Positions 10,499-51,824 are shown, counted from the stretch's first letter. The stretch: DNA of 64,000 nucleotides from an uncultured Erysipelotrichaceae bacterium (GCA_902801795.1 CADCJQ010000005.1:4414-68413); one strand, 5' to 3'. The notes: a model not told the origin generated them from the sequence alone. Translations and numbers: made by a program.

Positions 10499-11350
10499 TT
10501 ACATAAATAGTTTTTTCAAATTAAGAGAAGCATCATAAACAATATTTTTATTATAATGATATTTTTCACTAACAACTTTAATAGCATCCTTCATAGTAAT
10601 CTTATTTTTAATCATTTCATCGATGATTAATGATTCAATAGTATTCTCTTCTTTAGTTTCTATCTTTTCTTCATGCTTTTTTTCTATAATTAAAACATAT
10701 TCTCCTAATTCCGTATTAGGATTATTATGAAGAGTATTTAAGACATCACTTACTCGACCATAATATTTCTTTTCAAATTTTTTCGTTAAGTCATTACATA
10801 AACATATATTAGGATTATCTAGTATTTCATTTATTATTTCTAAAGTATTTATTATTCTTTTGGGAGATTCATAAATAACTGATAAATTACTAGGAGCATT
10901 TTTTATATTAGATAACTCTTCTTTCATTTTTTTCTTTTCTCTATCTAAGAAACCATAAAAACTAAAACTAGATGTATCCATACCACTACACATTAAACTA
11001 GTAATGACTGCCGATGGACCTGGAATACTTATAACTTCAATATTATGTTCTATAGCATCTTTTACTAAAATATAACCTGGATCTGATATACAAGGACATC
11101 CGGCATCTGTTATTAAAGCAATATCTTTATTATTTAGTAAATCATGAATTAAACTACTACTTTTTTCTTTTTCATTAAATTTATGATAACTAACTAATCT
11201 TTTATCAATATCAAAATGTTTTAATAAAACACTAGAGGTTCTAGTATCTTCACAAGCAATTAAATCAACATTTTTTAATGTATTAATCGCTCTTTCACTC
11301 ATATCTGATAAATTACCTATCGGTGTTCCAACAATATATAAAATTCCCAT
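10499..11350 (-). CDS. rsmI: 16S rRNA (cytidine1402-2'-O)-methyltransferase
   Basis: LYIVGTPIGNLSDMSERAINTLKNVDLIACEDTRTSSVLLKHFDI. I chose the start at MGILY, which has a GAAGG RBS; the track ORF begins 18 nt upstream. Confidence 0.9.
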   Translation of the reverse strand: MGILYIVGTPIGNLSDMSERAINTLKNVDLIACEDTRTSSVLLKHFDIDKRLVSYHKFNEKEKSSSLIHDLLNNKDIALITDAGCPCISDPGYILVKDAIEHNIEVISIPGPSAVITSLMCSGMDTSSFSFYGFLDREKKKMKEELSNIKNAPSNLSVIYESPKRIINTLEIINEILDNPNICLCNDLTKKFEKKYYGRVSDVLNTLHNNPNTELGEYVLIIEKKHEEKIETKEENTIESLIIDEMIKNKITMKDAIKVVSEKYHYNKNIVYDASLNLKKLFM

Positions 11351-11529
11351 AAAAACCTTCTTTCTCATTAATATTATAACAAAATCTATAAACTAATGCT
11401 ATTTTTTGATTTAATAATTGATTAAAAGACCTTAGTATTCTTGACATTTTTGTACAAAAATAAAGGTAAATTTCAAAAATAAGTAGAAAAAAGATAACAA
11501 ATATAGTATAATTTAACGTAGGTGATGTT

Positions 11530-41929: not shown

Positions 41930-42165
41930 GGCTTTTGAAAAGACAATACATAAACTTATTGCTAAAACTATAATGCCAATATTCTTTTTTATAATTCACC
42001 TCCATACACGATTATCTTAACAAAGAAGAAGTAAAAAATTTGTCGAAAAATAGTTTTGGTATAAAAAAACATTATTTTGTTATAATAATAATGTTAAAAA
42101 ACAGAAAAAATTTGAGAAAATACTTGTAATAATTTATCATTTATGATAATATATTCAAGTAACAC

Positions 42166-42206
42166 GGCGAGATAGCTCAGTTGGCTAGAGCGATTGGTTC
42201 ATACCC
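42166..42206 (+). other. 5' half of a split tRNA-Met(CAU) gene (left junction of the integrated element)
   Basis: ggcgagatagctcagttggctagagcgattggttcataccc is tRNA-like through the anticodon loop, then diverges (gttagatcg...). The complementary 3' half is at 49715..49759. Confidence 0.75.
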
Positions 42207-42235
42207 GTTAGATCGTTTTGGCACAATTGATAAAT

Positions 42236-42312
42236 GGCGAGATAGCTCAGTTGGCTAGAGCATGTGGTTCATACCCACAGGGTCGAGGGTTCGAATCCCC
42301 CTCTCGCTACCA
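42236..42312 (+). tRNA. tRNA-Met (anticodon CAU, elongator-like)
   Basis: GGCGAGATAGCTCAGTTGGCTAGAGCATGTGGTTCATACCCACAGGGTCGAGGGTTCGAATCCCCCTCTCGCTACCA. Anticodon stem is TGTGG/CCACA, loop TTCATAC, with an encoded CCA. Confidence 0.88.
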
Positions 42313-42323
42313 TGTGAAATTTT

Positions 42324-42351
42324 AAAGAGTGTCAAAAACGCTCTTTTTTTT
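42324..42351 (+). terminator. Rho-independent terminator after tRNA-Met
   Basis: aaagagtgt, caaaa loop, acgctcttt, followed by a T run. Confidence 0.6.
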
Positions 42352-42354
42352 GAT

Positions 42355-42389
42355 TTGTGCCGAAAAATTGTGCCATAGGTTTTTGTGCC
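42355..42389 (+). repeat. Three direct TTGTGCC repeats between the tRNA and the integrase stop (candidate arm-type recombinase sites)
   Basis: TTGTGCC at 42355, 42368 and 42383. An inverted copy (GGCACAA) lies at 42220..42226. Confidence 0.6.
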
Positions 42390-43445
42390 TTAAATACTTG
42401 TTGATTTTTCATATAATTCATCAAATATTTTGGCACATTTTTTCTTTTCATCATCAAAAGAATGAGTATATATATTTAATGTAATATCTGCATTTGCATG
42501 TCCTAATTGCTCACTTATTGTTTTAGGATCAATTCCATGACTATTTAATATACTTGCACATGTATGCCTTAACTCATGAAAAGTAATTTTAGGTAAATTA
42601 TATTTTTTTAAAAATTTTTGTAATAGTTTATTAGGTGTATCTGGATGCATGTGTTCACCATTAATAGATGTAAATAATCTATCAGTGCCAATCCACTTTT
42701 CACCCATTTCTATAATATAACAGTTTTGCCACTCTCTATAATCATTTAATAATGATAATATATCATCACCTAAATTAACATATCTAACAGAATATTCAGT
42801 TTTCGCTTTTTCTTCATCAACTATTCCATTTACAACTTTTAATGAATTATCTATAAATAGTGTTTTTTTATCATAATCAATATCAGACCAGCGAAGGGCA
42901 CATAGTTCCCCTTTTCTTATTCCCGTATATAATGCAAGAGTTATTATAGTTCTTACTTTAATAGTTTCTTTTTCTAAACAATCTAAAAGAGTTATAACTT
43001 GTTCATTATCATAAAAGTTTCTTTTCTTTCTTGTAAGTTTTGGTCTTGTAGCTTCTTCATTAGGATTATTATCAATAAATCGCCATTTTTTTGCTTGCTT
43101 GAACATTAAAGTTAATAAATTATAATAATGAATCATTGATTTAGGCGATAATCCTGCTTTTTTTCTACTACCATCTCTTAATTTAATATACATTTTATCT
43201 AACATATATGAATCAATATTTCTAAGTTTTATATCGCCTATTAAAGGTATAATTTTACTTATCATATGTTTATATCCTCGTGTTGTTACTTTACTTACAT
43301 TAGGAATACAATAATTCTTCATGAAAACTTCACTATACTCCTTAAAAGTTAAAGTCAAGACTTTTAAATTTTTACATTTATGATAACATTTTATTTTACC
43401 TGATAAAGCATATCTCATATCAGTTCTTGTATGTGTTTTATGCAT
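42390..43445 (-). CDS. int: Tyrosine-type site-specific recombinase (phage integrase family)
   Basis: The C-terminal catalytic region has ...LALYTGIRKGELCALRW..., HELRHTCASIL and LGHANADITLNIYTH (R...HxxR...H...Y). Confidence 0.88.
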   Translation of the reverse strand: MHKTHTRTDMRYALSGKIKCYHKCKNLKVLTLTFKEYSEVFMKNYCIPNVSKVTTRGYKHMISKIIPLIGDIKLRNIDSYMLDKMYIKLRDGSRKKAGLSPKSMIHYYNLLTLMFKQAKKWRFIDNNPNEEATRPKLTRKKRNFYDNEQVITLLDCLEKETIKVRTIITLALYTGIRKGELCALRWSDIDYDKKTLFIDNSLKVVNGIVDEEKAKTEYSVRYVNLGDDILSLLNDYREWQNCYIIEMGEKWIGTDRLFTSINGEHMHPDTPNKLLQKFLKKYNLPKITFHELRHTCASILNSHGIDPKTISEQLGHANADITLNIYTHSFDDEKKKCAKIFDELYEKSTSI

Positions 43446-44387
43446 AACAGAGTTTTATCTAAAATTTTATTACATCTATTCCACAATTCTTCTGATATAA
43501 TAGGAGGACAAGTTTCATTATCTTTATAAACTATCCATTCATCAGGTTTAAATTTTATCCTTTTTTTGAATAATAATCAATTGTAGTTTCTTTATGAACA
43601 CAAAAAAATCCTTTATATTTGGGATTTCGAATAATTCTCCCAATTACATTGCCTGCTAATGCTTTATTAGTTTAACTTTTAATATTATGTTCTTTATATA
43701 AATATTGACCTAATCTAGATGCTCCCATTTCTCCTTTGGAATATTCATTAAATATAAGTCTTATTAATTCTGCTTCTTCAGGAACTATTTCTAGTTTACC
43801 TTTATTTTTTCTACAACCATAAAAATTATTATTTCCTGGTACTATTCCTCTTTCAACACTTCTTTTATAACCAAATCTAATTCTTTCAGATAGTTTTCTA
43901 ATTTCATCTTGTGCAATACTTGACATGATTGTTAAACGAAGTTCTGAATCCGAATCAAAAGTGTTAATATTATCATTTAAGAAAAAATTCCAACACCATA
44001 AGACAATAGTTCTTGAGTATATTGAATACTATCAACAGTATTTTTTGGAAATCTTGATATCTCCTTTGTTAATATTAAATTAAACATTCCTTTTTTTTCA
44101 TCATTAACCATTTTAAGAAAATTATCTCTTTTATTAACACTTGTTCCACTTATTCCCTCATCAACATATCCTGAAACATATATCCAATTTGCTTGCAATT
44201 TAATATAATTTTCAAAATACATTTTTTGATTTTCTAATGAATTTAATTGTTCTTCATGATCAGTCGATACACGAGCATAATATGTAACATGAAGTGGTAA
44301 GTCTATTAATTTTTTACCCTGTGCTAAAATATTCCTAATTGTATACAGATTTAGAACCATAATATCTCCTCTTTTTTTAAACTGCAA
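43446..44387 (-). pseudogene. Large serine recombinase remnant (one frameshift, one nonsense codon, C-terminally truncated)
   Basis: The resolvase domain is YARVSTDHEEQLNSLENQ...DEGISGTS...LILTKEISRF. The frame breaks in a T-run near 43975. It continues LTIMSSIAQDEIRKLSERIRFG... to a TAA at 43672, then NKALAGNVIGRIIRNPKYKGFF...LWNRCNKIL, ending at the integrase start. Confidence 0.7.
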
Positions 44388-44910
44388 TTTTAATTATCAT
44401 CTTTGTCATATCTTCCTTTATATTTAATTTGTCTCTTAATTTAACAATATCTTCATGTAACTTTTTTAATATATTATTACATTGACAAAAATCTATTAAA
44501 CCTTTTTTATAAAGCTCATTAATAATTTCCTTTTCGATTTTTTTTTGCAATATTTGTGGAATGATTGTTTTTCAATTTTTTCCTCCTCATTTAAACATAT
44601 TAAAAAAAATGAAAAAAAAGAAGTCATATTTTGAATTCTAAAAGGATATTTAAAAAACTCCATATAAAATGAATATATAAATAATTTATTATAATATTAC
44701 CATCATTTATTGCAAAAAGACAAGTTGTGTTAACTTGTCCTCTTTACTTTTTAATCATATTCTCATCTATCATTCTTAAAGCCAATGCTTCCTTTATAGC
44801 ATCTTCTGGTTCTATACCACCACCAGCACTACTTAACAAGAAAATAAACATTATTACAATTATAAGGTAATATAGCTACTATCCTTTTTTATTTTTTTAC
44901 TAATTATAAT

Positions 44911-47900
44911 TTAATTTGTCTTAAGTGTTAAAAAGCCTTGCTGTCCTAACTTATCAATAACTGCATAGTCTTTATCAATATAACTTGTGCCTACTTGTGC
45001 AGAATTTGCTATATCAACATATTTAGTTCCATTTCCACCTACAAGTGAAGTATTATTGTAAAACATTGCGCCAGACGTTACTGAATTAGATGGATTCCAA
45101 ACATTAGACACATAAATTGTTGTTAATTTAGGGCAATCATAAAACATAGTTCCTAAATATGAAACATTATTTATATTAAATGAACTTAAATCTAATGTTG
45201 TTAAATTTGTGCAGCTATTAAACATATCAGACATATCGTTTATATTTGATGTATTCCATGTATCTAAACCAATAACGTTTTTTAATGATGAACCGCTACC
45301 AAAAAGTCCACTAATATTTGTTGTTAAACTTAAATCCCAGCCTGTAACATCAACTGTTTCTATAGTACCAGCTGCCCACTGGCGATATAGCCAATTAGTA
45401 AATTGACTAGGAAGTTTCCAATATCTACATATTAATGTCTTTAAAGAAGAAGTTCCACTAAAAAGTCCTCCAACCGAGCTATAATTTATATTACGCAAAT
45501 CCCAGTTATTTAATTCAATACTAACTAAATTACTACAATTTTGAAATAAGCTAGATATATTACTTATTTGACTAAAATTAGGATTATTTAAATAAATATG
45601 TTCTACGCTAGTAAGATTATAAAATGGACTTTTATTTCCATTGGAATAAAAAACAGTCTTTCCAAAATTAAAATTATTCATTATAATTGTTTTTAATTTA
45701 CTGCAATTTTTAAACATATCTGCCATATTCGTAAGAGCTGAACTACCAAATCCAGTTAAATTGATACTTTCTATATTTTTACAACCATAAAACATAGCGC
45801 CCATATTTGTTACACTGTCTGTTTTCAAAAGCGTAAAATCAATATCTAATAGACTTTCACATCCATAAAACATACCCGACATATTTGTTACTTTAGTGGT
45901 AAGAAAACTTGTTATAAAAGAGTTTCCACTAAGATTTTCAAATGTAATAAACCCTGGAATGCTGACTAAACTTTCACATCTCATAAACATATACGACATA
46001 TCTGTTACTTCACCTGAATCAAAATCAAAAAAATCAACTGTTTTTAACAACTCAGAACCTAAAAACATGTTTGACATATTTGTTACATAAAGAGCTCTTG
46101 CATTATTTAAACTAACATATTCTAATTCTCTTAAGCCACACGCATCTCCGGAAAACAGAACACTCATACTTGTTGCTTTTCCAAAATTAAAACCACTCAT
46201 ATTTATGTTTTTTAATTTATTACATTGAGTAAAAATGTAATTTATATTAATAAGGTTGTTACCGCCTAAATTACTTAAGTTCACACTCTCTAATTTTTTA
46301 CAATCTTGAAACATAAATGATATATCAGTAGCACTTTGCATATTTAACCATGATAAATCAATACTACTTATTTCAGATTGATAAAACATCATAGACATAT
46401 TAGTTACATTACTCGTATCCAGTCCTTTTATAGAAGATATATTATGACACTGCCAAAAAGCCATATACATATTTTCAACACTATGCGTATCAGCTTGAGT
46501 AAAATCAATTTCCTCTAATTCATTACATAAAGCGAATATCATTTCAAATGATCTTACACTACCAATATCAGCACCCTTTAAAGAAACTTCCTTTAATGAC
46601 GTTAATTTGTAAAACATACCATAAGCATCAGTTACATTACTAGCCTTAATATTACTAAGATCTATAAATTCTACATTTGCTAATTCATAAAAAATTGGAG
46701 CGCCATTAGTCATAGTACGATCTAGAGCAAATGAAGTAACTACTCCAAAATCAAAGCCACTCATATTTATCTCTTTTAAAGAATTGCAGTGATAAAATAA
46801 TTTACTAACATTTCGTAAAATATCACTACCTAAATTACTTAAATCAATACTTTTAAGTTTTTTGCAGTCAAGAAACATATATGACATAGTAGTTAATCTC
46901 GAAGTATTTACATTATTAAAAATTATATTTTCAGTATTAGAAAAAGTTCCTATTCCACTTTCATTACTAAACAACTGATAAGTTTGAGAACTACCCTCAT
47001 TATTTAAGTATGTGTCGCCATTACTAACAATATGCAAAATATACATTGTTTCATTGTCTACTTTTTCTATATTTTCATTTTGTTGAACGCTTAAAAATTG
47101 AGGAGTTATCTTTTTTGATGGTATTAAACTATTTGTTGTTGATGGTTGAATACTAACTTCTTCAAGCCAAGATAATACTTTACCTTCATTATTATATGTT
47201 AAATCTGCTTTAAAAGTAGCAGCATTATATTCATTTATCATCTCTGATGTTTTCATTCTTTCAAAGACAACCTTTTGTATTTTACCCACTTTATCATTAT
47301 AAATACCGCTAGCCGGATTAAAATTACTCATTGAATTTATTGTTACAACTTCTTCTACCCATATTCCTTCATTAGCTTCTGCTTTAATATTAAATGAAAT
47401 TGGTGATTCTTGCAAATAATTCCATTCTTCGGTTGTAAAAACAGTTCTATCACCTACCCATCTTAATGTATTACTATTTTCAATAGTATCAGTAATAGCA
47501 ATTTTATCTTTATCAATAAATGCTTTAATCGTTAATATGCCTTGTACTTCAGTATTTGCTGGGATATATCCTACTAATAATTGCTCTTCATCAAAGACAT
47601 TGTTATAATCTGTTTCCTTATATATTGCTACGCTACTATTTTCTCTCACATTTTCATCAAAATATGTGTTTGTGCTTGTTCCTAATGTTTTATTATTTAC
47701 ACCTTCTACTGATGTAGAAATTGTTATAGGAATTTTTTTATTGTTTATTGTTGCATTATTAAAATTTTCGACACTAATTACATACTCGATACCATTATTA
47801 TAAGTTGTACTGCCATTTATATTAACTTTTACAACTCCTATATTATTTTCATCAATTAAATTACTATCAATAGAAGAACTATCAATGGGAAAAGCATTTG

Positions 47901-48078
47901 TTAATTCAATTATCCCATTTTGACTTGTTTCAAAAGAAATATTACCAACTCTCAATATGTTTGAATTCCCTGTTCTTGTATAATTAAAAAAAGAATATGT
48001 TACTCCTCCAATTACCCCTATTAATATAAATAATCCTAAAATAATTAATATTTTTTGCGATGTTTTTTTATTTTCCAT
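44911..48078 (-). CDS. Large secreted surface protein: SipW-cognate-like signal, the shared N-terminal module, and a long DUF285/BspA-type leucine-rich repeat array
   Basis: N-terminus ...IGVIGGVTYSFFNYTRTGNSNILRVGNISF. The module LLVGYIPANTEVQGILTIKAFIDKDKIAITDT...ISFNIKAEANEGIWVEE matches the 25748 family. Many repeats follow of the type T.NVTNMS.MF..C..L..IDLS.F. Confidence 0.8.
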   Translation of the reverse strand: MENKKTSQKILIILGLFILIGVIGGVTYSFFNYTRTGNSNILRVGNISFETSQNGIIELTNAFPIDSSSIDSNLIDENNIGVVKVNINGSTTYNNGIEYVISVENFNNATINNKKIPITISTSVEGVNNKTLGTSTNTYFDENVRENSSVAIYKETDYNNVFDEEQLLVGYIPANTEVQGILTIKAFIDKDKIAITDTIENSNTLRWVGDRTVFTTEEWNYLQESPISFNIKAEANEGIWVEEVVTINSMSNFNPASGIYNDKVGKIQKVVFERMKTSEMINEYNAATFKADLTYNNEGKVLSWLEEVSIQPSTTNSLIPSKKITPQFLSVQQNENIEKVDNETMYILHIVSNGDTYLNNEGSSQTYQLFSNESGIGTFSNTENIIFNNVNTSRLTTMSYMFLDCKKLKSIDLSNLGSDILRNVSKLFYHCNSLKEINMSGFDFGVVTSFALDRTMTNGAPIFYELANVEFIDLSNIKASNVTDAYGMFYKLTSLKEVSLKGADIGSVRSFEMIFALCNELEEIDFTQADTHSVENMYMAFWQCHNISSIKGLDTSNVTNMSMMFYQSEISSIDLSWLNMQSATDISFMFQDCKKLESVNLSNLGGNNLININYIFTQCNKLKNINMSGFNFGKATSMSVLFSGDACGLRELEYVSLNNARALYVTNMSNMFLGSELLKTVDFFDFDSGEVTDMSYMFMRCESLVSIPGFITFENLSGNSFITSFLTTKVTNMSGMFYGCESLLDIDFTLLKTDSVTNMGAMFYGCKNIESINLTGFGSSALTNMADMFKNCSKLKTIIMNNFNFGKTVFYSNGNKSPFYNLTSVEHIYLNNPNFSQISNISSLFQNCSNLVSIELNNWDLRNINYSSVGGLFSGTSSLKTLICRYWKLPSQFTNWLYRQWAAGTIETVDVTGWDLSLTTNISGLFGSGSSLKNVIGLDTWNTSNINDMSDMFNSCTNLTTLDLSSFNINNVSYLGTMFYDCPKLTTIYVSNVWNPSNSVTSGAMFYNNTSLVGGNGTKYVDIANSAQVGTSYIDKDYAVIDKLGQQGFLTLKTN

Positions 48079-48471
48079 TTTTCCACTCTCCTTAACATTT
48101 TAAAACAACATTTTCAAATTAATTAAAGGCAAAAGTTTTCATTCTATTAATATAATTAATAAATTATCTTGAAAATTTTAGTTTTTCTTTATATAACATT
48201 TAATCATTAAATAATTACTATTAGTAATACAACTATCACTAACTAAAATATCTATATTACCTAAGAATTGTTTATTTTCTAAATTAACATGCATTCAAAA
48301 ATACGTTATTTAAAATTCTTCCTTTCATTTTGTTAAAAAACTTGGGTTAGGTATATACTCTTATTTTTTACCACAAAAGACATTTTATGACATCTGCTAT
48401 TATTACTACATTAGTTTATCACTAATTCAAATTTTTAACAATAATTTTACAATTTTTGATAAAAAAATCTC

Positions 48472-48657
48472 CTATTCAGTTAGTTTTTTTAAATCTTCAT
48501 TATCAAATACTTTAAAAGGATGATTTTCAAAGGTATCTAGCAAAGAAATGTCTATTTCTTCTACCTTTTCCTTTTTCATATCATCTCTTTCTTCTTGTGT
48601 TGTGAAGAAATCATCTATCTTGAGCGGCATCTTTATTTTGCTTTCTCTCTCGTCCAA
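48472..48657 (-). pseudogene. ParB/Spo0J-like N-terminal stub (truncated)
   Basis: 61 aa ending ...EIDISLLDTFENHPFKVFDNEDLKKLTE. This is the start of a ParB N-terminal domain (HPF box) with no HTH or dimerisation region. It overlaps the parA 3' end. Confidence 0.5.
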
Positions 48658-49444
48658 TTTCTATCACCTCACTTGCGAAATTATCATAACAAAAACTTGC
48701 TTTATTATTTCTATCATAGGATAAAATTGATTTCCCTTCGGCTGTTGATTCTGCAACTTTAATTGCAGTTGGAATAACTGAATCAAATACTTTAAATACC
48801 ATTCCATGCTGACTTCTTAATTCACTTATCATTTTTTTAGATAAATTAGTTCTATTATCTACCATAGTAATAAGTATTCCTATTCCACTTATATCCAAAT
48901 TAGGATTGATTTTTTGTTTTACCTTTAATATAGTAGAGAGTAGATGATTCATTCCTTTTGCTGCTAAAAACTGTGATTGAACGGGAATAATAACCTTATC
49001 ACTAGCTGCTAAAGAATTTATCGTTATCATGCCTAAACTTGGCATACAATCGATAAGTATATAATCATAGTTTTCTCTTAATGGAGTTAAAACATTTTTC
49101 ATAGTGTTTTCCCTGCTCATTACATTAACAAGTTCTATTTTCAAAGATGATAATTCCAAATTTGATGGAATAACATCTACACCTTCGGCATGATGTAATA
49201 TGGTATCTTTATAATTTAATTCTTTATCGTTAATAACATCATTCATAAGAGTTGCTAGTGTATTAGGAATATCATCAGGATTTTGCCAACCCATACAAGT
49301 TGTTAAATCACCTTGTGGATCTGCATCGACTAATAATACTTTTTTACCTCTATTTTTTAATGCTACTCCCAAATTAAAAGATGTAGTTGTTTTACCAACT
49401 CCACCTTTTTGATTGGCTATTGAAATTATTTCACATTTTGTCAT
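48611..49444 (-). CDS. parA: ParA/Soj-family partition ATPase
   Basis: Deviant Walker A in IISIANQKGGVGKTTTSFNLG, plus VLLVDADPQGDLT and ILIDCMPSLG. Confidence 0.9.
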   Translation of the reverse strand: MTKCEIISIANQKGGVGKTTTSFNLGVALKNRGKKVLLVDADPQGDLTTCMGWQNPDDIPNTLATLMNDVINDKELNYKDTILHHAEGVDVIPSNLELSSLKIELVNVMSRENTMKNVLTPLRENYDYILIDCMPSLGMITINSLAASDKVIIPVQSQFLAAKGMNHLLSTILKVKQKINPNLDISGIGILITMVDNRTNLSKKMISELRSQHGMVFKVFDSVIPTAIKVAESTAEGKSILSYDRNNKASFCYDNFASEVIEIGRERKQNKDAAQDR

Positions 49445-49574
49445 TTTCCCTCCTTTTATTTTGAAGGAAGTGTTTTATCAAAGATTATAATTTTTACATT
49501 TATTTTTATTTCAATTTAATAGCACTTTTTTTTAACTACTTTTATTAGATGTATAAGTGACCTAAAAAAAAATC

Positions 49575-49593
49575 TTGTGCCGAAAATTGTGCC
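49575..49593 (+). repeat. Two direct TTGTGCC repeats near the right end of the element
   Basis: tcTTGTGCCgaaaaTTGTGCCc is nearly identical to 42355..42374. Confidence 0.6.
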
Positions 49594-49610
49594 CAAATTA
49601 AAAATAAATG

Positions 49611-49640
49611 GTGATATTTAGTGATATTTTGTGATATTTT
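49611..49640 (+). repeat. Three tandem 10-bp iterons (GTGATATTTa/t) upstream of parA
   Basis: gtgatattta gtgatatttt gtgatatttt, read directly from the sequence. Confidence 0.85.
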
Positions 49641-49714
49641 AGAAATTATTAAAGCTTAACGAAACCCCTGTAAAATAAGGGCACGAGCTGATTTTTCATT
49701 ACCTCTTATTTTGT

Positions 49715-49759
49715 TTCATACCCAATAGGTCGAGGGTTCGACCCCCCCTCTCGCTACCA
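49715..49759 (+). other. 3' half of the split tRNA-Met(CAU) gene (right junction of the element)
   Basis: ttcatacccaataggtcgagggttcgaccccccctctcgctacca. CCAAT pairs perfectly with ATTGG of the 5' half at 42166..42206, and the acceptor 3' strand TCTCGCT matches GGCGAGA. Confidence 0.75.
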
Positions 49760-49769
49760 TTAGAAATTT

Positions 49770-49797
49770 AAAGAGCGTTAAAAAACGCTCTTTTTTT
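49770..49797. terminator. Bidirectional rho-independent terminator
   Basis: aaagagcgtt, aaaa loop, aacgctcttt, with T7 on the plus strand and an A-run on the other side. It is homologous to the terminator at 42324..42351. Confidence 0.6.
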
Positions 49798-50716
49798 AAT
49801 TAGATTCTTTAAATAATCCATTAGGAACTTTAGCAACAAAATTGTCTGGTATATCAATCCCTAAAGCATAAAGAACGATAGGCGCAGCATCACGATTATG
49901 CGTCTCAGCATCAAAGTTGGTCTTATTAACAGAATTACCTGCTACAGCAAGGATTGCTGAAGTTTCTTCTTTAGAATTTCCTCCATGACTAGTAACGGTT
50001 TCACCATGATCTGCTACAACCATAAAAAGTGTATCTTTCAATTGTTTTTTAGAATCCAAAACATCATATATTTTTCCAATATATTCATCAATGGTTTCTA
50101 ACGTATTATAATATTCATTGCTAAAGCCACCATTTTTATGAGCACTAATATCTGCAGAACCGAAATAAATAAACATAAGTGTTGGTATATCATTTTTAGA
50201 TAAATAGTCAACAGATGCATTCAACACCTCTAAATCAGAATTATGATTAATTAAATTTACTCCAATATCATTTTCAACTATCCCATTATTTATAGATTTC
50301 CAGTCTACTATTGAAACTAAATTAGCATCTGGAATAGCTTTTCTTACATAGCCAAAAATGGATAAAATTCCTGTAGAATAATGTGTTTTCTCACTAATCG
50401 AATCATTGGTATACTTATGTGTTTCACAAGCAACACCAGTTAATATTGAACCCCAATTTTGAGCACTATACGTTATATTTTCTGTTTTAGTATCATGCCT
50501 CAAAGCATAGTTTGAAAAAATTCTATCAATATTAGGCGATGATACTTTTTCAAAAGCCATTCCAGCTCCATCAACACCTATTATAATTACATGTTTATAT
50601 CCGTTAAAACTTTGATTGACAATAAAATAATAATAAATTAAACCAATTATACTTAATAATAAAATACATATTAGCACATTGAGTTTTCTTCCAAATCTTC
50701 GATTATAATTATCCAT
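49796..50716 (-). CDS. Alkaline-phosphatase-superfamily protein (nucleotide pyrophosphatase/phosphodiesterase-like) with an N-terminal TM
   Basis: IIIGVDGAGMAF, YSAQNWGSILTG and MVVADHGE. I prefer the ATG at 50716 after GAGGTG to the track's GTG at 50722. Confidence 0.75.
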   Translation of the reverse strand: MDNYNRRFGRKLNVLICILLLSIIGLIYYYFIVNQSFNGYKHVIIIGVDGAGMAFEKVSSPNIDRIFSNYALRHDTKTENITYSAQNWGSILTGVACETHKYTNDSISEKTHYSTGILSIFGYVRKAIPDANLVSIVDWKSINNGIVENDIGVNLINHNSDLEVLNASVDYLSKNDIPTLMFIYFGSADISAHKNGGFSNEYYNTLETIDEYIGKIYDVLDSKKQLKDTLFMVVADHGETVTSHGGNSKEETSAILAVAGNSVNKTNFDAETHNRDAAPIVLYALGIDIPDNFVAKVPNGLFKESN

Positions 50717-51281: not shown

Positions 51282-51358
51282 TGGTGACCAGTACGGGATT
51301 CGGACCCATGAATGCTGCCGTGAAAGGGCAGTGTGTTAAGCCACTTCACCAACTGGCC
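51282..51358 (-). tRNA. tRNA-Glu (anticodon UUC) with an atypical T-loop
   Basis: The reverse complement is GGCCAGTTGGTGAAGTGGCTTAACACACTGCCCTTTCACGGCAGCATTCATGGGTCCGAATCCCGTACTGGTCACCA. The anticodon loop is CTTTCAC. The T-loop reads TCCGAAT instead of TTCGAAT. Confidence 0.75.
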
Positions 51359-51475
51359 AGTTCAGGCTCTAACCACCAGAACATCGAGATTCCTCACGAA
51401 ATACTCATTTCTACTTGTACTAAATACTTATAGACACACCGGATGGTCGCCACCCTGTATACAATATAATAAAAA

Positions 51476-51552
51476 TGGCGCCTCAACTAGGACTTGAACC
51501 TAGGACCCCTTGATTAACAGTCAAGTGCTCTAACCAACTGAGCTATTGAGGC
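51476..51552 (-). tRNA. tRNA-Asn (anticodon GUU)
   Basis: The reverse complement is GCCTCAATAGCTCAGTTGGTTAGAGCACTTGACTGTTAATCAAGGGGTCCTAGGTTCAAGTCCTAGTTGAGGCGCCA. Confidence 0.9.
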
Positions 51553-51559
51553 ATATATA

Positions 51560-51636
51560 TGGTGGGCCTGGATGGACTTGAACCAACGACCTCTGACTTA
51601 TCAGATCAGCGCTCTAACCACCTGAGCTACAAGCCC
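51560..51636 (-). tRNA. tRNA-Ile (anticodon GAU)
   Basis: The reverse complement is GGGCTTGTAGCTCAGGTGGTTAGAGCGCTGATCTGATAAGTCAGAGGTCGTTGGTTCAAGTCCATCCAGGCCCACCA. Confidence 0.9.
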
Positions 51637-51655
51637 ATTTGCTTGTTACTTGATA

Positions 51656-51684
51656 ATTCTATCATAAAGAGATTGATTTATCAA
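51656..51684 (-). promoter_or_regulatory. Sigma-A-like promoter for the tRNA-Ile/Asn/Glu unit
   Basis: On the minus strand: TTGATA, a 17-nt spacer, then TAGAAT, ending about 20 nt before the tRNA-Ile 5' end. Confidence 0.45.
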
Positions 51685-51748
51685 GTCTTTTTTATTATTT
51701 TTTCCAAAATTTATCATTTTATACCTTTGAAAAACAATAAATAAAATA

Positions 51749-51824
51749 TGGTGTCCGGCTAGGGATTCGAACCCTAGACCCACTGATTAAGAGTCAGTTG
51801 CTCTACCAACTGAGCTAGCCAGAC
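51749..51824 (-). tRNA. tRNA-Lys (anticodon CUU)
   Basis: The reverse complement is GTCTGGCTAGCTCAGTTGGTAGAGCAACTGACTCTTAATCAGTGGGTCTAGGGTTCGAATCCCTAGCCGGACACCA. Confidence 0.88.

Follow-up and report, generated by a model that had tools for sequence, protein, structure and literature searches.

A host tRNA-Met gene in the window (the whole stretch of DNA analysed, 64,000 nucleotides) is split by a 7,517-bp insert (42207-49723, one core copy counted), and the insert carries an intact tRNA-Met of its own. The explanation that best covers the whole, which we consider highly probable, is that an integrated element split the host gene and carries a cognate replacement tRNA. One tRNA-Met(CAT) gene is divided between the segments 42166-42206 and 49715-49759, its two halves, and the features at and around the two junctions are as follows.

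42112..42153, + strand, host tRNA-Met promoter region (promoter scan, TTGAGA-17-TATCAT; by eye also TTGTAA-17-TAATAT)
42166..42197, + strand, host tRNA-Met 5′ part: acceptor strand, D arm, anticodon stem 5′ strand ATTGG
42198..42206, + strand, attL core copy TTCATACCC, 9 bp: anticodon loop and first two bases of the 3′ stem strand
42207..42235, + strand, element spacer of 29 nt between core and element tRNA, its first bases partly resembling a tRNA variable region
42236..42312, + strand, complete element tRNA-Met(CAT) (ARAGORN; Rfam tRNA, 64.5 bits)
42324..42354, + strand, intrinsic terminator of the element tRNA, a homologue of the host tRNA terminator
49715..49723, + strand, attR core copy TTCATACCC, an exact match to the attL copy
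49724..49759, + strand, host tRNA-Met 3′ part: CCAAT completion, variable loop, T arm, acceptor 3′ strand, ACCA
49770..49800, + strand, host tRNA-Met terminator (terminator scan; also at the empty site of L017)

The 5′ half reads GGCGAGATAGCTCAGTTGGCTAGAGCGATTGG+TTCATACCC and the 3′ half TTCATACCC+AATAGGTCGAGGGTTCGACCCCCCCTCTCGCTACCA, as the original prediction had read them, and the 9-bp core at 42198..42206, shared exactly by both junctions, is the likely crossover region. When joined, the halves are called by ARAGORN as a 77-nt tRNA-Met(cat), which bears out the claim that they make up a complete tRNA; at each junction by itself ARAGORN made no tRNA call, and Rfam gave no tRNA match at either with E-values of up to 1 allowed. 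L017, a related strain without the insert, has an intact tRNA-Met, scoring 63.1 bits against the Rfam tRNA model and flanked by the same genes as the window site, to which the joined halves are identical at 77/77 bases, the 5′ and 3′ parts alike. Its flanks align with those of the window by blastn at 98.9% and 93.6% identity, and the two alignments have 22 bp in common at the att site, a stretch that maps to the attL core; imperfect similarity around the core spans 22 bp, with 18/22 bases matching. The empty site of L017 holds this single tRNA-Met and no second tRNA, so the internal tRNA came with the insert, which split the host gene; two tandem tRNA-Met genes, the arrangement that would have spoken for another history, were not seen there. 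The target is presumably an elongator-type tRNA-Met rather than a tRNA-Ile2, on general grounds of Firmicute tRNA sequence. A classical restoring island was considered and set aside, because attL contains no intact hybrid tRNA: ARAGORN and Rfam make no call there, and the sequence 3′ of the core is unrelated beyond about 13 nt.

The element tRNA, whose predicted integrity the ARAGORN and Rfam calls uphold, begins 29 nt in from the left junction and reads in the direction of the split gene. A terminator, arm-like repeats and a tyrosine integrase come after it, and no other intact tRNA-Met lies in the 64-kb window. Over 116 bp the element and host tRNAs with their terminators are 87.9% identical, and both terminators were recovered as terminator-like by the scan, in agreement with the homology that had been claimed for them. 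The anticodon stems, TGTGG/CCACA in the element tRNA versus ATTGG/CCAAT in the host tRNA, differ at paired positions on both strands. An identical element tRNA occurs in L016, beside a full-length integrase of 93% identity and within a different host flank. Between and beyond the tRNA features, the element contains the following.

42220-42227, − strand, inverted arm-like site ATTGTGCC within the spacer (motif scan)
42354..42389, + strand, three direct repeats WTTGTGCC, candidate arm-type integrase binding sites of the P′ arm (motif scan)
42390..43445, − strand, tyrosine integrase ORF, 351 aa (Pfam PF00589, E = 3.5e-33; PF14659)
43446..44387, − strand, serine recombinase debris (ORFs 43672-43926 and 43977-44387; Pfam Resolvase, E = 1.8e-16)
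44911..48078, − strand, cargo: DUF285 / BspA-like leucine-rich-repeat protein, 1055 aa (Pfam DUF285, E = 3.9e-62, six stretches), with an N-terminal membrane or signal segment by eye
48472-48657, − strand, 61-aa ORF overlapping the ParA ATPase, ParB N-terminal fragment-like by eye only; no Pfam match
48611-49444 (region 48472..49444), − strand, ParA-type ATPase (Pfam AAA_31, CbiA, ParA)
49574..49593, + strand, two arm-like repeats, CTTGTGCC and ATTGTGCC, candidate P arm, about 120-140 bp from the core

Matches to WTTGTGCC number five in the 64-kb window and all lie at the two ends of the element; the P′ arm repeats are conserved in L016 and L053.

The same arrangement recurs in 20 related tRNA-Met loci on other contigs (L008-L016, L018-L026, L050 and L054), taken as those with an integrase at least 54% identical by tblastn on a contig reaching past the integrase, L053 being the exception. 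In all of them a full tRNA stands behind the host 5′ half, always separated from the 9-bp core by a comparable spacer of 29-41 nt, and the matching 3′ half is found 6-10.5 kb away in 14, which are all the loci whose contig reaches far enough. Across these loci the spacer and full tRNA are element-specific and the 5′ half is host-specific; the host halves vary from locus to locus but pair with each other, making up 14 distinct host tRNAs, and there are 8 distinct element tRNAs. Given the same layout with differing host halves and a tRNA of the element's own in 20 loci, the layout is the element's design and not an accident or a local scar. Sister clades have it as well, at 10 tRNA-Arg(CCT) loci and one tRNA-Ser(GCT) locus (L046). 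Elements that are 96-100% identical sit in flanks without detectable similarity (one pair excepted) and in differing target tRNAs; judged by these comparisons, the relatives have been mobile recently. Their gene set comprises an integrase, an HTH_17 excisionase directly upstream of it, a cI-like repressor and a DnaB-like helicase, and genes for packaging or conjugation were not recognised among them. Viral and metagenome collections yielded neither an excised circle nor an attP junction. Individual loci also depart from the common pattern: the target tRNA of L010 is itself of element type, and L012 has two attR-type 3′ halves 839 bp apart. A close relative, L053, has a single host-type tRNA abutting an element terminator and an integrase remnant, so that either the layout can collapse or a restoring variant exists.

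The alternative that survives best, although we regard it as improbable, is that the element tRNA is incidental cargo, serving codon supply or counter-defence against tRNA-cleaving nucleases, and that the split host gene was redundant and its loss neutral. The host tRNA copy number is seen for 64 kb of the genome only, so that compensation may not be essential at this site, and the mBio paper on mycobacterial phages considered below (PMC10865867) too names counter-defence as a possible selective force. Incidental cargo does not explain, however, why the carried tRNA matches its target in isotype and anticodon in all of the Met, Arg(CCT) and Ser(GCT) clades, and why it always adjoins the crossover in the orientation of the target. 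In addition, 97.6% of cells were paired in a covariation analysis of the tRNAs, and 13/21 pairs change on both sides; none of 500 shuffles reached the observed values, and controls with slid positions were 40-56% paired. The tRNAs keep their cloverleaf through compensatory changes, which argues against incidental cargo. Far less credible is the proposal, raised in the original prediction as the scar of two successive integrations, that an older or tandem event left behind the 5′ half, the spacer and the full tRNA and that the present element restored its gene classically. Tandem remnants such as that of L012 do exist and L010 offers an element-type target, but 20/20 related tRNA-Met loci have a 5′ half, a spacer of 29-41 nt and a full tRNA in this order, the 5′ half in the window has its perfect pairing partner in the distal 3′ half, not in the internal tRNA, and the empty site of L017 has a single tRNA; we therefore reject it. 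Least tenable of all is an assembly or binning artefact, in which repeated tRNA sequences gave a chimeric contig that mimics a split gene: assemblies do break at repeats (L006 ends in the tRNA region and L002 near a tRNA cluster, and L007 is a 1.3-kb contig with the integrase only), but several samples yielded the occupied arrangement in separate assemblies (L001/L005, L006), more than 20 contigs produced by different studies and assemblers show this architecture, and the junctions are base-exact relative to L017.

We propose that an element of a small tyrosine-integrase family, integrated at 42207-49723, split the host tRNA-Met and supplies its replacement in the following way. The attP of the family shares with the target just the short core TTCATACCC(G), in the anticodon loop of the elongator-type tRNA-Met, and with so short a shared core recombination splits the host gene and rebuilds nothing at either junction. 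The attP region also holds a complete cognate tRNA-Met, 29-41 nt downstream of the crossover, oriented like the target and equipped with its own terminator. Following integration, this spare tRNA would stand directly behind the host tRNA promoter, be transcribed from it and take over the lost function. The host promoter region, whose sequence is also present upstream of the intact gene in L017, lies about 70-120 nt upstream of the element tRNA after integration. Across 21 loci, most host 5′ halves are preceded by promoter-like sites with 9-12/12 matches, their -10 box mostly ending 11-26 nt upstream of the 5′ half, and just 8-9/12 matches at scattered, distant positions occur upstream of the element tRNA in the reconstructed attP; these are consensus scans in DNA of 25% G+C, where chance matches are common. 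A whole carried tRNA would also remove the need for a chimera that joins the 5′ half of a host tRNA to an element 3′ half, two pieces that must pair with each other, so that host range would be restricted. Hypothetical chimeras of this kind have 1-4 mismatches in the acceptor or anticodon stem in 20/21 loci, and a restoring design would be costly for these elements.

The window copy is, by comparison with its relatives, a decayed descendant of the family. The tyrosine integrase that had been predicted is present, but the prediction missed its N-terminal truncation: the catalytic domain is complete, the arm-binding domain at the N-terminus, which takes up roughly the first 50 aa in homologues, is gone, the protein has 351 aa versus 380-390 aa in homologues, and homology to the full-length gene of L016 stops at 43397 in the blastn alignment. 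The serine recombinase debris occupies the position of the relatives' integrase 5′ end and HTH_17 excisionase, and no excisionase was found in the window element by Pfam or in the upstream sequence. With an integrase that has no arm-binding domain and with no excisionase (recombination directionality factor), the copy does not qualify as an excision-competent element. It is probably immobile and fixed in place, and tRNA-Met expression from the locus would consequently now come from the element tRNA.

Taken together, these observations allow a broader reading, which we put forward tentatively and at somewhat less than even odds: a widespread non-phage family of small integrative elements in uncultured gut Firmicutes, in which the attP tRNA captures the promoter of the gene it destroys, would be freed from matching the host tRNA, so that near-identical copies could cross species, and decay would leave the host dependent. 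If this is true, decayed copies such as that in the window leave their hosts permanently dependent on a foreign tRNA, the process provides a route for horizontal replacement of core tRNA genes, and L010 could represent a later round of the same replacement.

That the element disrupts its target and carries a whole replacement tRNA, as originally predicted, is borne out by the single tRNA of L017 and by the layout of the 20 related loci, and compensation itself would follow from the proposed mechanism; the novelty of the strategy was overstated. In Guerrero-Bustamante and Hatfull (mBio 2024, PMC10865867), tRNA-dependent lysogeny is shown experimentally and named in mycobacterial phages (Fionnbharth, LeBron, Gaia, Mollymur and others); the cores there are 8-17 bp long, the tRNA is not reconstituted, and lysogens are viable only with a cognate phage tRNA. 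The window element likewise combines a PF00589 integrase, an attB within a tRNA gene, no rebuilt tRNA and a cognate tRNA. Both systems have tyrosine integrases with an N-terminal arm-binding domain and arm-type sites around the core, short cores (8-17 bp there, 9-12 bp here) from which attL and attR rebuild no tRNA, and relatives close in the integrase family that resemble the classical restoring kind (here L066 and L080). The tRNA-dependent lysogeny phages are complete temperate phages of Actinobacteria, whereas the elements described here measure 6-10.5 kb, have no structural genes and come from uncultured low-G+C gut Firmicutes. A temperate phage was considered for the window element and rejected: no structural, packaging or lysis genes were found by Pfam in it or in relatives of 6.9-9 kb, there is no close relative in IMG/VR or among GenBank phages, and the integrases are 33% identical or less to those of the GenBank phage collection. 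The tRNA of Fionnbharth, as that paper describes it, is encoded at another place in the genome, on the strand opposite a gene, and has its own strong promoter, whereas here 29-41 nt separate the tRNA from the crossover, and it has the orientation of the target and no evident promoter. The targets are tRNA-Lys, Ile2 and Leu in the phages and tRNA-Met, Arg(CCT) and Ser(GCT) here, and the tRNA requirement is experimental there and inferred here. These elements work like the phage system but are not phages.

Firmicute phage satellites (PICI-like, e.g. Streptococcus 'Javan') are alike in size, 6-10 kb, and in gene set, and their integrases rank with the best matches in the phage database, weak as these are (about 29% identity); for the elements described here, neither a helper phage nor genes for packaging or capsid remodelling could be identified. 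In the Lactobacillus johnsonii prophage Lj965, which PMC10865867 treats as an earlier hint of the tRNA-dependent strategy, the tRNA is not rebuilt at the junction and the carried tRNA genes could complement it (PMC10865867, PMC3714127). As these citing papers describe it, Lj965 shares with our elements a Firmicute host, an unrestored junction and tRNA genes of its own, and differs in being a full-size prophage with four of them. In classical islands, as catalogued by Islander (PMC4383910), attP carries the 3′ part of the tRNA, so that one junction regains an intact hybrid gene. The tyrosine integrase, tRNA target, anticodon-loop crossover and displaced 3′ fragment at the far end are common to such islands and the elements described here, whereas in the latter neither junction regenerates a gene, and the element brings a whole tRNA separately. 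Their left boundary might be misplaced by a method that looks for one intact tRNA and a single displaced fragment. The strategy itself is already known; the elements that use it here are small, are not phages and belong to uncultured gut bacteria.

The host tRNA-Met gene is cut within its anticodon loop, and the insert separating its two halves carries a complete tRNA-Met of its own.

Features of the insert and its junctions (window coordinates)
42166-42206: host tRNA-Met 5′ half, GGCGAGATAGCTCAGTTGGCTAGAGCGATTGG-TTCATACCC; acceptor strand, D arm, 5′ strand of the anticodon stem, anticodon loop and two bases
42198-42206: core of the left junction (attL), TTCATACCC
Between core and element tRNA: spacer of 29 nt with one inverted ATTGTGCC
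42236-42312: element tRNA-Met; anticodon stem TGTGG/CCACA, against ATTGG/CCAAT in the host, differing on both strands
After the element tRNA: element terminator, homologous to the host tRNA terminator
Between element terminator and integrase: three direct WTTGTGCC repeats
Right of these repeats, minus strand: integrase gene
Insert interior: serine recombinase fragments; a 1055-aa DUF285/BspA-like repeat protein; ParA and an overlapping short ORF
49574-49593, near the other end of the insert: two further WTTGTGCC repeats
49715-49759: host tRNA-Met 3′ half, TTCATACCC-AATAGGTCGAGGGTTCGACCCCCCCTCTCGCTACCA

At either window junction alone, ARAGORN called no tRNA and no Rfam match reached E = 1. As the original prediction had it, the halves form one gene: joined, they are called by ARAGORN as a 77-nt tRNA-Met(cat) whose acceptor, D and anticodon stems are all perfect. 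The internal tRNA-Met, likewise predicted to be intact, was called by ARAGORN and scores 64.5 bits with the Rfam tRNA model, and the proposed homology of the terminators behind the two tRNA 3′ ends was borne out. Same-strain contigs, derived from greA or the integrase, were useless as an empty site because every one of sufficient length was occupied. An exact-protein look-up with the GTG-start ORF of the flanking phosphodiesterase gave no match; the called gene begins two codons after the start of that ORF. A homology search led to P0121, a 99%-identical homologue of this right-junction phosphodiesterase, on L017, a contig of a related strain in which it is followed directly by a 121-aa gene and radC, the genes that flank the left junction in the window. 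Between these genes lies one tRNA-Met (63.1 bits, Rfam), whose 77 bases equal the joined window halves and which has the same promoter region and terminator as the window host gene. By blastn, L017 1-1300 matches window 51010-49711 at 98.9% and L017 1279-2435 matches window 42215-41061 at 93.6%, the 22-bp overlap of the two alignments being att similarity. The window is therefore the empty site with 7,517 bp put in at TTCATACCC in the anticodon loop, and because the empty site is without a second tRNA, the internal tRNA arrived with the insert. An intact tRNA at an unoccupied site thus supports the reading that the element disrupts its target and brings a whole replacement, which would compensate for the loss. 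The alternative raised in the original prediction, a scar of two successive integrations, is rejected by the single tRNA of L017 together with a layout that recurs throughout the element family; tandem host tRNA genes at the empty site are rejected by that single tRNA-Met, and an assembly artefact was considered and rejected.

All five exact matches to WTTGTGCC within the 64-kb window fall at the two element ends, as would be expected of arm-type sites, and the element tRNA is embedded between them. The G+C content of the insert (26.5%) does not differ from that of its flanks. A possible tRNA 5′ half in degenerate form, located before the right-junction (attR) core on its upstream side (GGCACGAGCTGA... 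near 49681) was also considered, the likeness being too weak to claim. Four further tRNA genes (Glu, Asn, Ile, Lys; 51282-51824, minus strand) lie between the island and greA, 1.5 kb beyond the island's right end, and some same-strain assemblies break at this cluster (L002).

The same layout defines a family. Elements of about 9 kb encoding P0003, an integrase 67% identical to that of the window, occupy at least six genomic contexts (L008-L015) in the order host-specific tRNA-Met 5′ half, TTCATACCC, 29-nt element spacer, complete element tRNA-Met, terminator, integrase, excisionase and, last, TTCATACCC followed by the host 3′ half that matches the 5′ half; the D stem of their tRNA, TATC/GATA, is unusual and fully paired. 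A wider scripted analysis with one genome per species added L018-L026, L050 and L054. Including the window, 21 loci have a 5′ half with a full tRNA behind it, and in 15 of them the 3′ half is visible 6-10.5 kb away, and these Met loci comprise 14 distinct host tRNAs and 8 distinct element tRNAs. The elements of L019, L020 and L021 are 100% identical over 6.9 kb and those of the P0003 group 96-99.7% identical; near-identical elements have different target tRNAs and, but for one partial exception, flanks between which no similarity could be detected. By these comparisons, the elements are recently mobile and cross host lineages, the hosts being labelled as uncultured Bacilli, Clostridia, Tenericutes or Mycoplasma MAGs from human (Hadza), rabbit, mouse and ruminant gut.

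Individual loci record more complex histories. In L010, the tRNA-Met split by a P0003-type element (about 11313-11385 and about 2420-2466) is itself of element type, with D stem TATC/GATA, variable region ATGTT and acceptor GGCGGGG, and resembles the tRNA of the L026 element; an element tRNA may here have taken the place of a host tRNA gene earlier, the gene later becoming a target once more. L012 has two attR-type junctions (TTCATACCC plus tRNA-Met 3′ half) at 1509 and 2348, 839 bp apart and with different element-side sequences. A second element, different from the first, has left a remnant at this tRNA, which makes the site a hotspot for more than one element type. In L053 (5600-6270), an integrase remnant with 96% protein identity to P0001 and 94.5% DNA identity to the window is followed by an element-type terminator and arm repeats, past which lies one tRNA-Met only; it is of the window's host type, has a good promoter immediately upstream and is not accompanied by an orphan 5′ half. 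The locus represents a restoring variant of this element, or else recombination of the host 5′ half with an identical element tRNA has collapsed the arrangement.

In an alignment of 22 distinct host and element tRNAs, 97.6% of cells are paired and 13 of 21 pairs have changes on both sides, a degree of pairing or covariation reached by none of 500 shuffles (slid controls, 40-56% paired). The D-stem double changes sit in element-type tRNAs, the L010 target included. Such conservation of the cloverleaf argues for selection on tRNA structure. In a restoring element with its crossover in the anticodon loop, the element's 3′ half would have to pair with the host 5′ half over 12 bp of acceptor and anticodon stem, a constraint that a whole carried tRNA would lift. 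Chimeras of host 5′ and element 3′ halves would have 1-4 mismatches in these stems at 20 of the 21 loci, against 0-1 in the true host and element tRNAs, and the spread of identical elements over differing targets fits a lifted constraint. On this host-range view, swaps of the acceptor and anticodon stems in a target that keeps GGTTCATACCCG would leave integration frequency unchanged. The rationale is testable, near-identical elements being found in hosts with differing target tRNAs and a restored chimera being one that would be mismatched in almost all.

Upstream of the host 5′ half lie promoter-like sites matching 9-12 of 12 consensus positions, with the -10 box ending 11-26 nt upstream at most loci, whereas the best sites upstream of the element tRNA in reconstructed attP, the element's own site, match 8-9 of 12 and are scattered 51-76 nt away, the background level for this A+T-rich DNA. 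By this comparison, the spare tRNA is probably transcribed from the captured host promoter within a precursor of 5′ half, spacer and tRNA that ends at its own terminator. The tRNA-Met expressed from the window locus is probably foreign in origin.

The design extends to sister clades. Integrases 45-51% identical target tRNA-Arg(CCT) at 10 loci, in the order host 5′ half, CCTCCTAAG, 50-60-nt spacer, complete element tRNA-Arg(CCT), element body, integrase, arm repeats, and CCTCCTAAG with the host 3′ half, an order that leaves the spare tRNA next to the crossover but puts the integrase at the other end of the element; L046 has the same design with tRNA-Ser(GCT). L066 (Arg-TCT) and L080 (Arg-CCT) lack an orphan 5′ half and resemble elements of the classical, restoring kind; beside the splitting loci, they place both modes within one integrase family.

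At the element end beside the displaced host 3′ half, Arg-clade loci (L027, L029, L035-L040, L052, L056, L072 and L080, downstream of the integrase, e.g. L037 about 11250-11300; L033 about 6800) conserve TGGTGTYC, about 28-30 nt upstream of the core and in many cases with a TATAAT-like box before it. The motif, reverse-complementary to the tRNA-Arg 3′ end (GRACACCA), could pair with the host 3′ half as an acceptor-like stem; at the L033 junction ARAGORN called a 71-nt 'tRNA-Arg'. The motif could be a binding site or part of a tRNA-like junction RNA. In L074 (integrase 46% identical; 981-1066 and 11116-11330), the reverse complement of a tRNA-Leu(GAG) 5′ half lies downstream of the integrase and a full tRNA-Leu at the far end; orientation to the target appears reversed relative to the Met and Arg clades.

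Relatives encode the integrase, an HTH_17 excisionase, a cI-like HTH_3 regulator, a DnaB-like helicase (PHROG 19, E = 3.5e-46), zinc-ribbon membrane proteins and unknowns, and in most copies genes for capsid, packaging, lysis or conjugation are lacking. The integrase had no close relative in IMG/VR or GenBank phages (best 33% identical in each), Streptococcus satellite phages being among the weak GenBank matches. The family is best classed as one of small integrative elements, which may be satellites or mobilisable elements. Excised-circle (attP) junctions had no exact match in JGI metagenomes (P0003 type) or in IMG/VR and JGI metagenomes (window/L016 type), collections that may not include these gut samples.

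The window element is a decayed member of this family. Its integrase ORF has 351 aa, against 380-390 aa in homologues with an N-terminal arm-binding domain (PF14657), and nucleotide homology to L016, a relative with a 93%-identical full-length integrase, ends at 43397, upstream of which serine-recombinase debris replaces the integrase 5′ end and the HTH_17 excisionase present in relatives. The catalytic domain keeps all invariant residues. Because an arm-dependent integrase is left without its arm-binding domain and without an excisionase, excision is unlikely. A large DUF285/BspA-like leucine-rich-repeat protein adjoins the integrase remnant in two decayed islands (window 44911-48078; L053 2524-4731) and is absent from intact small relatives. 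The probable permanent loss of a host tRNA gene to a foreign substitute is worth recording, as are the evidence from across the family and the host-range rationale. Island-detection tools built to find an intact tRNA with a single displaced fragment may set the left boundary of such elements wrongly, and annotators may mistake the element tRNA for a host gene.

The strategy was at first considered unusual, but its mechanism is already known, having been described and named tRNA-dependent lysogeny by Guerrero-Bustamante and Hatfull (mBio 2024; PMC10865867), and will not surprise a specialist aware of that work. There, a tyrosine integrase uses an attB overlapping a tRNA gene, with a core of about 10 bp, the tRNA is not reconstituted, and viable lysogens need a phage tRNA of matching isotype; several actinobacteriophage clusters use this mode beside restoring relatives, likely with more than one origin (PMC10865867). 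The same authors noted Lj965 of Lactobacillus johnsonii as a possible case outside Actinobacteria and urged surveys elsewhere (PMC10865867), and a later paper states that a similar case had been described for Mesorhizobium-phage-like prophages. Our findings take the split-plus-spare strategy beyond actinobacteriophages, as the standard design of this family of small elements, recurring for at least three tRNA identities. As in the mycobacteriophage clusters, splitting and restoring modes stand side by side in this integrase family. New are the carriers, small non-phage elements; the hosts, uncultured gut Firmicutes; the targets, Met, Arg-CCT and Ser-GCT; and the position of the tRNA: whereas that of Fionnbharth lies elsewhere in its genome under its own strong promoter, here it is placed inside attP, directly behind the crossover.
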